This document shows, one piece after another, positions 1 through 5,423 of a stretch of 37,277 nt of DNA. How positions within the stretch are numbered: the stretch's first letter is position 1; every line of letters starts with the position of its first letter. The notes beneath the pieces were generated by a model that searched no databases, was not told where the DNA came from, and saw only the letters and a list, made by a program, of their open reading frames with translations. A program made the position numbers and the translations under genes. Source of the DNA: a virus (Duplodnaviria > Heunggongvirae > Uroviricota > Caudoviricetes); the IMG/VR virus record IMGVR_UViG_2711768166_000003; one strand, written 5' to 3'.

Positions 1-341
1 GGCGTCACACCCGAAGAGACAATTACTTCTGGAACCCCATTGAGATGCTGGTAAAAGCGTTGGAACCACAATTCCAGATTCATACCATTGGCGAGAATCA
101 GTTGTGCCCCCTGCGCACGTTTAATATCGCCAGGGGTAGGCTGATACTCATGAATTTCTGCACCAGGCTTGGTTATGGATGAGACTTCTGCAGCATCTCC
201 CGCCACGTTTTTGGCCATATCCGCGATGATGGTAAATGTTGTAATGACCTTAAATTTTTCAGTTGCACTTGCCTGAAATGCGATCGAGCAGGTGAGTGCG
301 AGGCCCCCCAAGAGCATGGTTACTTTTTTTATTGAGCGCAT
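1..341 (-). CDS. sitA: Mn/Fe ABC transporter periplasmic substrate-binding protein SitA, N-terminal part (gene continues beyond window start)
   Basis: Reverse-strand translation from ATG at 339-341 reads MRSIKKVTMLLGGLALTCSIAFQASATEKFKVITTFTIIADMAKNVAGDAAEVSSITKPGAEIHEYQPTPGDIKRAQGAQLILANGMNLELWFQRFYQHLNGVPEVIVSSGVTP; signal peptide then conserved SitA/MntC-type N-terminus. Not in the ORF track because it runs off the window edge. Confidence 0.8.
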   Translation of the reverse strand, partial: MRSIKKVTMLLGGLALTCSIAFQASATEKFKVITTFTIIADMAKNVAGDAAEVSSITKPGAEIHEYQPTPGDIKRAQGAQLILANGMNLELWFQRFYQHLNGVPEVIVSSGVT

Positions 342-373
342 AATTTAGTACCTATAGTGAGCAAAATTAGAAC

Positions 374-395
374 AAACATAGCAACGGCTATGTTT
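374..395. promoter_or_regulatory. MntR-box-like perfect inverted repeat in the sitA upstream region
   Basis: AAACATAGC-aacg-GCTATGTTT, a 9-bp perfect inverted repeat with 4-bp spacer; matches the recalled MntR operator consensus found upstream of mntH/sitA. Confidence 0.6.
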
Positions 396-417
396 TATAG
401 CATAACCTATACAGAAT

Positions 418-436
418 GAAAATGATTATCATTAAC
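418..436. promoter_or_regulatory. Fur-box-like site in the sitA upstream region
   Basis: GAAAATGATTATCATTAAC matches the 19-bp Fur consensus GATAATGATAATCATTATC at 16 of 19 positions; palindromic core AATGAT-T-ATCATT. Confidence 0.5.
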
Positions 437-534
437 ATCTTTGAGGCCCAAAACAGGGATTAGTTTGTTTCCTGCTGGATGAAAGGACTCTTGGGATAGC
501 ACATGCCGCACGAAGAGCAGCATTACATGATGTT

Positions 535-774
535 TTGTCGAATGAGCTACGAATCCTGATAGAAATACGAAACAAGCTAGCACATGGACAATGGATCTAT
601 CCCTTCAATAATGAAGGAAATACTGTTGACCCTGATAAATATAAATTAATCAATAAAGAAAACTTGCAGTCACTCCAATTCAAATATTCATTAGCACAGC
701 ATTTAGTTGACGCTGTACATGATTTGGTTGTAAGTCCTACGACATTCGAACGAGATTTCGAAAGCCATTTTTAA
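535..774 (+). pseudogene. Short ORF with HEPN-like R-x4-H motif, possible remnant of an Abi-type HEPN protein
   Basis: 79-aa ORF in AT-rich DNA; contains EIRNKLAHGQW (R-x4-H plus flanking residues typical of HEPN active sites). Too short for a full HEPN protein; no clear RBS. Confidence 0.3.
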
Positions 775-1256
775 AAATTATATCAAGTACGAACAAACTT
801 AGTGACAAAAGACTACGAAAAATATAAAACAATTTTAGTATTAAGTAGAGAGAAATTTCGTTCTGCTAGGACGCAGCAATAGGTTCATGAGATTCTCTGA
901 TACTTGTTACCTTAGTAAGCCTTAAATTTTTAAAAATTCTTTTACGTCCACTCCTCGCTCATAACAGGCATTAACTACATTTATCTTCATTGGCTATGCA
1001 AGTCGTAATAAAAGGTGGGACAAAACTGAGACACATAAGCTCTCACAAAGGTCTGCAAGGCCTCACATGTATTGAGATGTTAATAAAATGTAGACTTGTA
1101 ATTTTGATATAAATGGTAGATAAAACCTTTCCCCAAAATAAAAACGAACGTCAATGAAATCAAATGGTTGAATAAAGTTGATTTTGGCTAATAAAAAAAC
1201 AATAAAATAATTTTTATTATTAAATATCAATGACTTAAACTTAATGTTTTTATATA

Positions 1257-1421
1257 CTGCTGCGCCATATGGGCTGGACTGAAGCTGCAGACCTGATTGT
1301 TAAAGGTATGGAAGGCGCAATCAATGCCAAGACCGTAACCTATGACTTCGAACGTCTGATGGAAGGCGCTAAACTGCTGAAATGTTCAGAGTTTGGTGAT
1401 GCGATCATCAAGAACATGTAA
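1257..1421 (+). pseudogene. icd: Isocitrate dehydrogenase 3'-terminal fragment (icdC-like), prophage attachment junction
   Basis: In-frame translation [54 protein letters not shown] matches the Icd C-terminus with a few substitutions; similarity starts abruptly at about 1257 with unrelated AT-rich DNA upstream, so no intact icd precedes it. Confidence 0.85.
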
Positions 1422-1444
1422 TTACTACATATGTTAAATATTGT

Positions 1445-1476
1445 AACGGGCGTATAACACGTCCGTTATTTTTTGT
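1445..1476 (+). terminator. Rho-independent terminator following the icd 3' fragment
   Basis: Stem AACGGGCGT / ACGTCCGTT (one mismatch) followed by ATTTTTTGTT. Confidence 0.55.
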
Positions 1477-1490
1477 TAGCCTGCTAACGG

Positions 1491-1523
1491 TTATCAAAAT
1501 TTTATCAAAACAAGTTATCAAAA
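1491..1523. repeat. Three direct copies of TTATCAAAA next to the att junction (candidate integrase arm-type or accessory-protein sites)
   Basis: TTATCAAAA at 1491-1499, 1502-1510 and 1515-1523. Confidence 0.5.
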
Positions 1524-1763
1524 CCCTTGGTAGTTGGCGGTGAGAGGGGGGGGGTTAAGCGCGTTAGTTTTTCATTACGAATTTCTCTGCTTTTCATGAT
1601 TAATGTTGGTGGATGCTTGCTAATATTTAGGCCTGTGTTGTGCCAGAAGCAGAAGTTGCCAGCATTAAATTGATGGGGTAATAAAATATGGTTTGTTGTT
1701 TGAAATTCTAATGGATTCAATTAATTAGGTTTTAATGTTTGACTAGCTCACAAGTATAATTAT

Positions 1764-3347
1764 TTGTTATTCAAAGGAACAAGACAATTGAACACTTTCA
1801 TATTCAGAAATAATGATGAAATCGGGAAGTTAGAGGCAGAATCAGACAATTACTTAGACTCATGTTTTTTAGAGACAAACATATTCAAAGGTATTATGAA
1901 CTTTGATCCATCTGAGAAAAATCCAGATTTTACGAAAAGAATCATCGTTGGAAGAACTGGTAGCGGAAAGTCAGCGATTTTAAGGAAGATTATCGACGAA
2001 GAAAGCATAAAGTTTTCTGATAAGATTGAAGCAGAAAACACTATTTTTGAACATGTTAAAAACAATGTCTTTATTTCATCCCTAAATGATAGTGGAATTG
2101 ACTTGAGAGTTTTTTATAAGTCTTTATGGTTACATGCGCTACTAATAAAAGTCATTCCAGCCTTACATCGGTCAACTTATCAAAGCTTTTTTAATAAAAT
2201 TCAAGACTTAATTGGTGGGAAAAAGAAGTCATATAATCCAGAGTTGGCAAATGAATATATCGAACAATTTAAGGACGTATTTTTTAATGACAAGGCTTTA
2301 GTGGAAATAAGCAACAAAATGCAGAGTGAATTATCTTCTAAGATAGGTATAAAAGGTATAGATCTTGGAGGTAAACTTGGTCGCGAAGACACTCAGAAAG
2401 TGCAGTCTGAAACATCCAGTTATGTAAGCAGAGAGTTAATCAGAAAACAAAAGGAATTAATAAAAATATTAAATGAAGAGTTTTCTGAAGTTGGACAGTT
2501 TAGGATAGTTATAAGCATTGATGATCTTGATCGTTCTTGGCTGAGCTCTAGCGATATAAGATATGATTTTATAAATGCACTATTAGAAGCATTTAGGGAG
2601 TTACTTGACGTCAAGTCAGTTAAAATATTAATTTCGATTAGAACTGATATACTAATGGGTATTTACAATAAAACATTAAGGCAAGATGAGAAGGACCAGT
2701 CTCTTATTTATCCTGTATCTTGGAATAAATCAGAGATCCGAGAAATAATTGACATGCGTATTAATCACTTAATTAAAAATAAATATCAAAGCTCTCGCAC
2801 TATTACAATGAAAGATATTTTCAATTTTGAAATTGATAACGTATATGCAGATGATTATATTTTAGACAGAACAATGTTAAGACCTAGAGATGCAATAAGT
2901 TTTGTAAATTATTGCTTAAAGGAGTGTGATGGGCACGTAAGTATTAATCAAGATATAGTTTTAATGGCAGAAGAGAAGTTTTTTTCTTCTAGGAAAAGAG
3001 CATTGGTGTCGGAATGGGGAACTATTTACAAAAATATTTCAGGTTACATAGACGCCTTATCTTTGTTGGAAAAACATGAATTTTCATTAGAATCAATTGG
3101 AGACGATAATAAAAATGACATTCTAACTTATATTCTTGATAGAGTTCCATCAGATATCGAAGATGATTTACACTCCAAAATAGTAATGAACTTTGATGAA
3201 TTAATAAAAGTATGGTTTATTGTTGGAATTATAGGGATAAAGAGGACTGAAACCTTAATAATATACTCTTCATATGATAAACCCGATCTTGATATCACTG
3301 ATATCAAACGCAACTTCGTCATTCATCCTTTGTTTAATAGAAGATGA
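1764..3347 (+). CDS. AT-rich cargo P-loop NTPase, KAP-like (Walker A GRTGSGKS, Walker B VISIDDLDR); candidate defence ATPase
   Basis: 527-aa ORF; Walker A near residue 63 and hhhhDDLDR Walker B near residue 250 (long A-to-B spacing as in KAP NTPases), further ISIRTD and LRPRDA motifs. Sits between att and int. Start uncertain: track start is TTG at 1764; first in-frame ATG is at 1896; a TATAAT hexamer lies at 1755-1760. Confidence 0.7.
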   Translation: MLFKGTRQLNTFIFRNNDEIGKLEAESDNYLDSCFLETNIFKGIMNFDPSEKNPDFTKRIIVGRTGSGKSAILRKIIDEESIKFSDKIEAENTIFEHVKNNVFISSLNDSGIDLRVFYKSLWLHALLIKVIPALHRSTYQSFFNKIQDLIGGKKKSYNPELANEYIEQFKDVFFNDKALVEISNKMQSELSSKIGIKGIDLGGKLGREDTQKVQSETSSYVSRELIRKQKELIKILNEEFSEVGQFRIVISIDDLDRSWLSSSDIRYDFINALLEAFRELLDVKSVKILISIRTDILMGIYNKTLRQDEKDQSLIYPVSWNKSEIREIIDMRINHLIKNKYQSSRTITMKDIFNFEIDNVYADDYILDRTMLRPRDAISFVNYCLKECDGHVSINQDIVLMAEEKFFSSRKRALVSEWGTIYKNISGYIDALSLLEKHEFSLESIGDDNKNDILTYILDRVPSDIEDDLHSKIVMNFDELIKVWFIVGIIGIKRTETLIIYSSYDKPDLDITDIKRNFVIHPLFNRR

Positions 3348-3477
3348 TATCTAAGGTATGATCTTAGTATAAACCTAGTTAAAATTATTAAGGCACATCC
3401 CTCGCTTAAACCAAATTGTTTGACTCTTTTTCATGAGTGGTGAGAAATTCAAGGTAGCGTTGAAAATATTAGATTTT

Positions 3478-4605
3478 TTACCACGCTACCTTGCTCCATC
3501 CTTTGCCTCGATCGTCATGATAACGATCGGTTTGTTGTTGCGTTTTATGGCCAAGTAGTTTTTGTGTGTCTACCCCCTGTTCTTTGTACAGACGTTCAGA
3601 TAAAGACCTTTGTTCATGGAATGTTGCTGGTGAGCCATTACCCCAGTCAATTTCTGCCAAATCTCTCGCTCTACTAAAATTCGTCGTCAATGTATTGGAT
3701 TTAACCTGCGCGCCACGTTCAGCCTGTGAAGTGGTACGAAAAAAATGCACAAGGTATGGGCTGACTGCATAGTCACGGCAGCGGGCGACTACATCGCGTA
3801 AACTCCAGTTAATTGCATTGAGGCGAAGGGAAAGCGGGATGGCGATTTTGCTCCCGGTTTTTTCTTGGATGACGTGAAGATGATCATCCCAAATATCGCT
3901 AAATTTCATTTTGGATATATCTCCCAAACGCTGCCCAGTGACCAAAGCTAGGAGCATGGCATTTCCCATGTAACGATGACTGGCGTCTGCTATATCGAAT
4001 ATTTTTTGCCATTCTTCCAGGCTGAGGCGTTGACGGGTAATTTTTCTTTTGGGTTGCTTCGTCGCAAGAGCAGGGTTATACCCTGGCGGAACTTCGCCAT
4101 AATGCTGTGCTTCCTTAAACACATCGATCAATACAGACCTAACGACTTGGGCCATTCTAGGCTGTCCAGCTGCAATATACTCATCAAGCAATTGTGCTAT
4201 ATCTCTAACATCAACGGATGAGATCAACTTCATTCCTGCTCGTTCTCTGAGCAAGGATACTGGTTTAGCTTTTTGCTTATAGGTGTTGAGTCTTATATCA
4301 CCACTTTTGAGCCTGTCATCCTGGATCGCTTGATAGCGATCTAACCAGGTTGACGTTGTGATCGCTTTTCCTTTGCTGGTTGCGATCCTATCACTGATAG
4401 CTAGAATCTGCCGGGTTCTTTGCTCAGCCAGACGAGTGTTAGCTTCAGTGGCAATAGCAATAGCTTCAGCTTCATTTGTGCCCAACGAATGAAATTTCCC
4501 GGTCACTGGATGCTTATATCGCCAATAGACTTTATTTACTTTTCTACTATAAAGCGGATACAAGTTAGGTACTGAAACATTATTTTTACGTGGTCTGGCT
4601 GCCAT
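3478..4605 (-). CDS. int: Phage integrase, tyrosine recombinase
   Basis: 375 aa; conserved catalytic elements TGQRLGD (Arg), HEQRSLSERLY (H-x-x-R) and C-terminal TDRYHD (Tyr); adjacent to att and excisionase. Confidence 0.95.
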   Translation of the reverse strand: MAARPRKNNVSVPNLYPLYSRKVNKVYWRYKHPVTGKFHSLGTNEAEAIAIATEANTRLAEQRTRQILAISDRIATSKGKAITTSTWLDRYQAIQDDRLKSGDIRLNTYKQKAKPVSLLRERAGMKLISSVDVRDIAQLLDEYIAAGQPRMAQVVRSVLIDVFKEAQHYGEVPPGYNPALATKQPKRKITRQRLSLEEWQKIFDIADASHRYMGNAMLLALVTGQRLGDISKMKFSDIWDDHLHVIQEKTGSKIAIPLSLRLNAINWSLRDVVARCRDYAVSPYLVHFFRTTSQAERGAQVKSNTLTTNFSRARDLAEIDWGNGSPATFHEQRSLSERLYKEQGVDTQKLLGHKTQQQTDRYHDDRGKGWSKVAW

Positions 4606-4846
4606 TGCTTAAAATCCTTTGCAGAATAATAGAATCACTTTTCTTGATTACTGGAGTAACTAATTCCCCAACTAACTCTGCGTCCTCACGTACTCGCCAG
4701 AGTCGACCTTGTTTCATTGCTGGTGGACAAAATAAATTCTGCTTAGCATAACGACGCAATGTGGACACACTTGGAGGATTACTCCTAAATTTTTCCGCAG
4801 CCCATTCCTCAAGTGTCAGCATTTGAAGCATTTTTGATAACCTCAT
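4586..4846 (-). CDS. xis: Excisionase (Xis)
   Basis: Small protein immediately upstream of and overlapping int; MLTLEEWAAEK...PSVSTLRRYAK...GRLWRVRED is typical of phage excisionase-type DNA-binding proteins. True start may be the internal Met at 4831, which has a GAGG RBS. Confidence 0.8.
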   Translation of the reverse strand: MRLSKMLQMLTLEEWAAEKFRSNPPSVSTLRRYAKQNLFCPPAMKQGRLWRVREDAELVGELVTPVIKKSDSIILQRILSNGSQTT

Positions 4847-4886
4847 TTCTTTTGCTACAAAACTATTTCACTAGTTAATTTCGCTG

Positions 4887-5423
4887 TCAGGATTGCTTAT
4901 GTATCTTATGCAGCTCTTTAAAACGTTCCATAAATATCTCGTAGGCATGGCCAGGAGCCAGAGGAACAACTTCGAACATCTCTGTTGCCGGGATACCTTC
5001 CAATACTGGCCAGAAAGAGCCATCATCAAGCCCGAGATCGCGGCGTTCGGTTGCCAGCATGATGAGATCGGCATATTTCACGGGCGTGCTCATAGCCTGA
5101 GGTAACCCGTATTTCTCACGGATTACGGCGTCTATTTTTTCTTCCATCCGTTTATAGTCAGGAAGAAGGCGTTTCAGTGCTGCGGGGATGTCCTGGCAAT
5201 ACGCTTCTGTTGCATCATGCATTAATGCTTCAAAAGCAAATTCCTGCGGTACCAGCATGCTGCAAAGCACCGCATGTTGGGCGACGCTATAGAAGTGTGA
5301 AAGGTGTCCTGCAAAGCGGCAGATATTTGAAAGGGAAACCGCGATATCGTTAATAACGATGTCGTCTTTATTTATCTTGTCATAATAAAAATGCTTCCCA
5401 GAAAAAGTTTTAATAAATGACAT
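4887..5423 (-). CDS. HD-domain phosphohydrolase (YfdR-like 5'-deoxynucleotidase)
   Basis: H...HD metal-binding signature (SVAQHAVL ... LMHDATEAY); start set at the Met preceded by GGAGAA RBS (MSFIKTFSGKH...), 178 aa. Confidence 0.8.
   Translation of the reverse strand: MSFIKTFSGKHFYYDKINKDDIVINDIAVSLSNICRFAGHLSHFYSVAQHAVLCSMLVPQEFAFEALMHDATEAYCQDIPAALKRLLPDYKRMEEKIDAVIREKYGLPQAMSTPVKYADLIMLATERRDLGLDDGSFWPVLEGIPATEMFEVVPLAPGHAYEIFMERFKELHKIHKQS

Follow-up and report, generated by a model that had tools for sequence, protein, structure and literature searches.

Predicted MntR and Fur operators upstream of a prophage-borne sitABCD operon in Escherichia coli

RESULTS

Gene Content at the Left End of the Window

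The window analyzed here is the whole 37,277-nucleotide stretch of virus DNA held as IMG/VR record IMGVR_UViG_2711768166_000003, the left end of which is occupied by the 5' part of a gene that is read from the minus strand. Translation of positions 341 to 3 yields a polypeptide beginning MRSIKKVTMLLGGLALTCSIAFQASATEKFKVITTF, and the N terminus encoded by the 113 sitA codons inside the window matched the Pfam family ZnuA (PF01297) with E = 9e-24. Translation and Pfam match together identify the product as a ZnuA/SitA-type periplasmic Mn/Fe-binding protein of a SitABCD ABC importer. Many E. coli chromosomes carry annotated sitA and upstream DNA that are 100% identical to window bases 1 to 560, and the matching gene is annotated as sitA in thousands of E. 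coli records. The sitBCD genes lie beyond the window and were seen in related records; complete sitABCD follows the identical 560 bp in strains SE15 and MS1657 and in phages 21 and 1W. A sequence-only reading of this DNA had placed a metal-responsive control region upstream of sitA, which is correct as to position but left the strand unstated: sitA is on the minus strand, and upstream is rightwards. The features of this region are as follows.

1 to 341, minus strand: 5' part of sitA, with its ATG at 341 to 339; the gene exits the left end of the window
350 to 353, minus strand: likely ribosome-binding site AGG (353 to 351), 10-12 nt before the ATG, as read from the sequence
374 to 395, no strand: predicted proximal MntR operator, a perfect AAACATAGC-N4-GCTATGTTT palindrome covering the putative start region
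394 to 402, minus strand: putative extended -10 element TGcTATAAA (hexamer 399 to 394, 5/6 match; TG at 402 to 401)
397 to 410 (22-mer 393 to 414), no strand: distal MntR-type dyad ATAGG-TTAT-GCTAT with one core mismatch, a candidate second operator
412 to 436, no strand: predicted Fur operator, made up of the 19-mer 418 to 436 and an overlapping register at 412 to 430
417 to 422, minus strand: putative -35 element TTTTCA (4/6 match), 17 bp upstream of the -10 element
437 to 477, no strand: rest of the transferable sit module, common to chromosomal, phage, and plasmid alleles

A ribosome-binding site is annotated at the same position as the window AGG in the phage 21 record OL657228.

Prophage Context of the sit Operon

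To the right of the sit region, the window continues into phage DNA with the following features.

1269 to 1421: icd fragment
1764 to 3347, plus strand: 527-amino acid ORF encoding a KAP/Sll1717-type P-loop ATPase (RefSeq "P-loop ATPase, Sll1717 family"; Pfam KAP_NTPase)
3478 to 4605: lambda-type integrase
4586 to 4846: excisionase
onwards: phage with SfII-like early genes

Positions 1 to 1300 are 99.7% identical to phages 4A7, Lambda_4C10, 1W, and 3W, and positions 1 to 478 are 98% identical to classical phage 21. In phages 21 and 1W, sitDCBA is found in the b region, beside a phage-borne icd 3' fragment, attP, and int. The sitABCD moron described in lambda-like coliphages (Mathieu et al. 2020, PMC6969025) is essentially the DNA of the window, and phage 21 (OL657228) has the same sit region with neither box annotated in its record. 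Judged by these alignments, the sitABCD operon travels as cargo of lambdoid phages that integrate at icd (phage 21, 4A7, and 1W). The control region had been described earlier as looking intact although abutting prophage DNA. It is indeed intact, the nearest lineage-specific breakpoint being at 477/478, but the operon does not merely abut the prophage; it is phage cargo.

Coverage of at least 80% of positions 440 to 5200 was found in only 3 of 5,426 complete E. coli genomes (from window position 980 or 1258 onwards), and in at least one of these, MS1657, sitDCBA lies directly upstream. The arrangement looks like tandem elements at icd, in which a sit-bearing lambdoid element with its icd' fragment is followed by a second icd-type prophage. 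The 527-amino acid ATPase ORF is located between the att/icd' site and the integrase, where a DUF262 protein is encoded in other strains; this position looks like a variable cargo slot, possibly with an anti-phage role. Just downstream of the icd fragment, at 1436 to 1511 on the minus strand, part of the Rfam model of the Hfq-binding sRNA STnc150 is matched below threshold (27.4 bits versus a gathering score of 60; E = 0.002).

A Perfect MntR Box Proximal to sitA

The palindrome at 374 to 395 consists of two 9-nt arms (374 to 382 and 387 to 395) that are 100% complementary and separated by a 4-nt spacer, as the sequence-only reading had stated. It abuts the putative -10 element and spans positions -33 to -54 relative to the A of the sitA ATG. 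When compared with the consensus AACATAGC-N4-GCTATGTT, it shows 0/18 mismatches, and its arms are identical to those of the K-12 mntH box. In a search with AAACATAGCNNNNGCTATGTTT allowing up to 3 mismatches, 374 to 395 was the sole match in the 37-kb window, for which shuffled sequences predict 0.01 matches. The enterobacterial MntR consensus is given as AACATAGCnnnnGCTATGTT, quoted from Ikeda et al. 2005, in PMC1698941, and the box in the window is the one published for orthologous operons.

The weight-matrix scoring proposed at the outset gave a similar picture for MntR. The MntR matrix was built from 18 sites, comprising sitA orthologues of other genera and K-12 mntH and mntS, with E. coli sit alleles excluded. 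The palindrome scored 28.6 bits, inside the range of the training sites (21.9-31.7 bits), against 9.1 bits for the next best site in the window and a maximum of 19.1 bits over 200 shuffles. Both this matrix and the Fur matrix described below derive partly from orthologous or consensus-picked sites, and their scores are partly dependent on the consensus. The ATAG...GCTA core is invariant in 20/20 sites aligned at orthologous positions (11 genera together with K-12 mntH and mntS).

A Fur Box Upstream of the MntR Box

The second element lies at positions -77 to -95 relative to the A of the ATG, and thus, like the MntR box, within the approximately 100 bp originally proposed. Comparison of 418 to 436 with the Fur consensus GATAATGATAATCATTATC gave 3 mismatches on the plus strand (16/19), exactly the match claimed beforehand, and an even better 2 mismatches (17/19) on the sitA strand, where the 19-mer reads GTTAATGATAATCATTTTC. 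No match to the consensus at up to 3 mismatches occurred in shuffled sequences (0.00 expected). A second register at 412 to 430, displaced by 6 bp, has 4 mismatches and on the face of its sequence is the usual overlapping-hexamer look of Fur sites. As read by eye, TGATAATcATTTTCA at 431 to 417 has one mismatch to the 7-1-7 form of the Fur site.

The 13 sites of the Fur matrix were Fur-type boxes of orthologues, the box of K-12 mntH, and three taken from the K-12 ent-fep cluster; E. coli sit alleles were again excluded. The 19-mer at 418 to 436 scored 26.0 bits, above the 16.8-25.5 bits of the training sites; the next best site in the window reached 17.7 bits, and the best of 200 shuffles reached 19.2 bits. 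For calibration, the best consensus boxes in K-12 intergenic regions under classical Fur control have 3 mismatches (fepD-entS) and 4 mismatches (fepB-entC), and no Fur consensus match at up to 5 mismatches was found in fepA-fes. By the consensus, therefore, the sitA Fur box would rank as a very good one, with 2 mismatches versus 3 and 4 in these two K-12 regions.

Service of the Fur box to a divergent plus-strand gene was considered and rejected. The sole ORF there (445 to 774, plus strand) is an open frame of ~110 codons with no Pfam match and no convincing start, its first possible initiation codon being a TTG at 535. Most likely it is what remains of a gene in the b region of the phage.

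A Putative Promoter between the Boxes and the Nature of the Palindrome

The two boxes appear to flank a sigma-70 promoter. On the sitA strand, the order from 5' to 3' is Fur box (436 to 418), -35 element, 17-bp spacer, -10 element, palindrome (395 to 374), AGG, and ATG (341). Of the 6 bases of the putative -35 element (417 to 422), 5 fall in the 3' end of the Fur box, and ATTTTCAT at this position is kept in the aligned genera. Transcription is predicted to start around 386 to 388, inside the MntR palindrome. A generic promoter scan found no minus-strand promoter; the scan demands a T at hexamer position 6, and it is for this reason that the -10 element was missed.

An inverted repeat ahead of a gene may also be read as an RNA hairpin, which in this case would act on the sitA leader, as an intrinsic terminator or attenuator, or else end transcription coming from upstream. 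A consensus scan did classify the minus strand here as terminator-like, with a 9-bp stem followed by GTTCTAATTT, and the hairpin folds with -9.8 kcal/mol (z = -3.6 versus shuffles). Of the 9 stem pairs, however, only 3 are G-C, and the T tract is not continuous. On the sense strand, the promoter elements precede the palindrome and the sitA start codon follows it. The predicted start of transcription falls within it, and therefore the full stem would not be transcribed. No plus-strand gene ends upstream of the palindrome, and a permissive Rfam search of positions 1 to 1800 returned nothing in 342 to 477, i.e. no riboswitch or known leader.

The pattern of substitution in the 20 aligned sites also bears on this point. 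The exact sequence of the four innermost pairs is kept: three never vary, and the fourth shows one C-to-T change, in the ColV allele. The outer pairs, by contrast, decay without compensation, with 8/20 sites unpaired at each of the two outermost positions and two-sided changes at one position only. As far as an alignment can tell, this is the signature of a dimer-binding dyad and not of an RNA stem. We consider the hairpin reading extremely improbable and treat the palindrome as a predicted MntR operator.

Conservation of the Boxes within E. coli and across Genera

The 136-bp region 342 to 477 is present in identical form in about 240 E. coli records, and 2,356 of 5,426 complete E. coli genomes carry variants of it, at 1,681 chromosomal and 1,009 plasmid places. 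Both boxes are kept in 12/12 other E. coli alleles inspected, which were chromosomal, phage, and plasmid alleles of 84-100% identity; the allele of plasmid pS88 was among those aligned. In the chromosomal and phage alleles the MntR box carries 0 mismatches and the Fur box 2, and the 5' ends of the two boxes are 41 bp apart; in alleles of the ColV plasmid type the counts are 1 and 4, respectively, and the distance is 39 bp. In an alignment of 8 E. coli alleles, variable columns were distributed as follows.

Beyond 477: 12/13
437 to 477: 17/41
Fur box: 3/19
MntR box: 2/22
5'UTR: 3/32

Homology to most other alleles stops at 477/478, 41 bp beyond the Fur box; past this point, the alleles of the window, SE15, and SaT040 are wholly unlike those of UPEC 536, phage 21, and the ColV plasmids. 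Among E. coli alleles, conservation of the 5'UTR equals that of the boxes, and therefore intraspecies data alone do not single the boxes out.

Cross-genus comparison does so. Among 80 sitA loci fetched from reference genomes, a footprint set of Salmonella arizonae, Citrobacter, Klebsiella, Erwinia amylovora, and Shimwellia gave the following mean majority fractions.

Upstream flank: 0.46
5'UTR: 0.65
Fur box: 0.82
-10 block: 0.95 (the most conserved block)
MntR box: 0.86

In this alignment, the boxes were kept while the flanks diverged. Upstream of sitA in alpha-proteobacterial and other sit loci, boxes of the GCAAATG-N5-CATTTGC type were present without MntR boxes. Control by Mur, a manganese-responsive Fur-like protein, is described for Rhizobiales, and boxes of this type fit such control.

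Conservation alone might mislead if the boxes were non-functional relics carried with a transferred module, or if only one of them still worked in this allele. The sit module is mobile, being found in phage b regions, ColV plasmids, and chromosomes, and the whole of 342 to 436 is conserved within E. coli, an identity that recent common descent could explain. The same two boxes nevertheless persist in genera with unalignable flanks, and the ColV allele, 15% diverged over the region, keeps both and responds to iron depletion with strong induction. For either box, moreover, the version with the highest score is that of the window allele. Decay of one or both boxes is accordingly judged very improbable, and the two boxes are taken below as predicted operators.

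A Conserved Distal Dyad

The sequence-only reading had spoken of paired sites. Both members of the pair are present, but the description understates the layout in that a weaker MntR-type dyad, ATAGG-TTAT-GCTAT, lies between them at 397 to 410. Its center is exactly 19 bp upstream of that of the proximal palindrome, the junction being GCTAT-N5-ATAGC, and it overlaps the promoter spacer and the -10 element. For comparison, 20 enterobacterial orthologues were anchored on the gene-proximal ATAGC-N4-GCTAT core and, with the window and a ColV plasmid, gave 22 alleles. A distal core was found at the same offset in 22/22 of these sit alleles: 16 were perfect, 5 had one mismatch, and 1 (Citrobacter) had two. 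The dyad is also present at K-12 mntS, with one mismatch, but K-12 mntH is without it, having 7 core mismatches at the -19 offset. An apparent division into two promoter classes, with Fur-MntR distances of 23 bp and about 41 bp, proved to be an artefact, the best consensus match in some genera being the distal dyad; re-anchoring on the gene-proximal dyad gave a single common layout across genera.

This conservation suggests that the distal dyad is one half of a tandem MntR operator and thus a candidate second site. Quite possibly it is not an operator, in which case the dyad would be conserved only for the part it shares with the extended -10 element, and the proximal palindrome alone would serve MntR. 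The right half of the dyad, GCTAT, provides the TAT of the -10 hexamer, with the TG preceding it, and a single box suffices at K-12 mntH. The distal 22-mer of the window has 9/18 mismatches to the consensus and a matrix score of 9.1 bits, which is the second best in the window yet within reach of chance (the best scores of shuffled windows have a mean of 9.3 bits). The left half, ATAGC, is however located in the promoter spacer, a stretch in which RNA polymerase does not discriminate between bases, and the near-constancy of the core at a fixed 19-bp offset is coupled to 4-nt spacers that vary freely among sit alleles. Cores with at most one mismatch occur at just 43 of 114,130 positions in these loci, which is about the number that the sit dyads themselves would supply.

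The identity of the consensus-like copy also differs by lineage. It is the proximal copy in the window, whereas in Enterobacter and Buttiauxella it is the distal copy that comes within 0-1 mismatch of the full 22-mer, the proximal copy being the weak one. The ColV plasmids are mixed: the distal core is perfect, and the proximal core reads ATAGT, the reverse of the situation in the window. From these alignments it is conceivable, though on balance unlikely, that manganese control of enterobacterial sit operates via tandem MntR dyads with centers 19 bp apart, a layout that K-12 mntS would have inherited. Such a layout may read ATAGC-N4-GCTAT, 5 nt, ATAGC-N4-GCTAT, with the distal dyad over the spacer and -10 element and the proximal dyad over the start site.

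When IMG/VR was scanned with the double-dyad pattern, 13 contigs matched. Of these, 8 were E. coli prophage contigs that bear sit and share this control region. In the remaining 5, which were environmental, double ATAGC-N4-GCTAT arrays were unlinked to sit, and several of these arrays formed larger palindromes of their own; a phage regulator of some kind may use them as operators.

DISCUSSION

The sites at 374 to 436, their strength, and their conservation identify a region that is very probably, by analogy with homologous promoters, the operator region of the sitABCD promoter and subject to repression by host Fur and host MntR. The dual Mn/Fe control of sit operons on which the original reading drew is established for Salmonella. 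There, Fur and MntR each repress a sitA-lacZ fusion (PMC8970401), and in a Salmonella fur mutant sitA is up 53.8-fold, placing it among the most derepressed genes (PMC3212961). Repression of MntH and SitABCD by Mn-MntR in both Salmonella and Shigella has been reviewed (PMC3852070). For sitA on plasmid pS88, iron-depleted LB brought 17.8-fold induction; the corresponding values for serum and urine were 49.5-fold and 83.9-fold (PMC3438092). A Fur box upstream of the lambda-borne sit operon has, furthermore, already been reported in the alignment of Supplementary Fig. 7 of Mathieu et al. 2020 (PMC6969025), the sequence in which is essentially the control region of the window; the term "MntR" was not found in the supplementary files of that paper. 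The control region in the window is thus the already known iron- and manganese-responsive sit promoter, and its recognition was correct but not new. If anything here is new, it would be the conserved tandem MntR dyad. The literature searched makes no mention of a second MntR site at sitA, although the primary sit papers and RegPrecise fall outside it and the site may already be recorded.

Comparison with known systems places the window allele among close relatives. The sitABCD operon of Salmonella enterica SPI-1 is orthologous and, according to Ikeda et al. 2005 as relayed in PMC8970401, PMC3212961, and PMC1698941, repressed by MntR and Fur. In S. arizonae, the distance from the Fur-type box down to the MntR box is 42 bp, versus 41 bp in the window, and the two loci share a TGCTATA(A/T)AACATAGC-N4-GCTAT block. 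The S. arizonae boxes are weaker, with 3 MntR and 6 Fur mismatches versus 0 and 2 in the window, the flanks and 5'UTR of Salmonella sit are unalignable with those of the window, and the Salmonella operon resides in SPI-1, whereas that of the window resides in a lambdoid prophage. The sitABCD operons of ColV/ColBM plasmids (pS88 and APEC plasmids) have the same module and layout as the window, with about 85% identity over the 136-bp region, a Fur match of 15/19, and a spacing of 39 bp; their proximal MntR box has one core mismatch (ATAGT), whereas that of the window has none.

The K-12 mntH gene is the textbook example of a dual-repressed gene; Patzer and Hantke reportedly found in 2001 that its promoter is under dual repression by Fe-Fur and Mn-MntR. 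Its MntR box is a perfect AAACATAGC-AAAG-GCTATGTTT, with arms identical to those in the window, and its upstream Fur box likewise overlaps a -35-like hexamer. Unlike sitA, mntH encodes an NRAMP transporter, the spacing of its boxes is 34 and not 41 bp, and its Fur match is 15/19. K-12 mntS resembles sit in having a tandem arrangement of TTAGC-AATA-GCTAT, 5 nt, and ATAGC-CTGT-GCTAT; it differs in that no Fur box was found there and the downstream gene encodes a 42-amino acid protein and not a transporter. The mntS promoter is MntR-repressed, and MntS has been proposed to descend from the SitA signal peptide (bioRxiv 10.1101/2023.06.02.543501).

The geometry of the sites points to a simple model of control. 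Under iron sufficiency, host Fe2+-Fur would bind 412 to 436, overlapping the -35 hexamer. MntR is a dimer of the DtxR family, and under manganese sufficiency host Mn2+-MntR would bind 374 to 395, from the last bases of the -10 element across the start site. It would probably also occupy the weaker dyad at 397 to 410, over the spacer and the -10 element. Either repressor alone is expected to block RNA polymerase, to judge from the occlusion geometry, and therefore the importer would be made only when iron and/or manganese is scarce. Both Fur and MntR are host-encoded; a prophage cargo operon would therefore be wired into two host metal regulons.

The tandem-dyad layout, if undocumented, would refine the model of the MntR operator and help explain the tightness of manganese shut-off. 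SitABCD is recognized as contributing to fitness and virulence in Shigella and extraintestinal E. coli. For the window itself, the value of the analysis is mainly one of correct annotation: a prophage-borne importer appears to keep the operators that would place it under the host Fur and MntR regulons. With these operators retained, a lysogen would therefore express the importer only under scarcity of iron or manganese, e.g. inside a host.
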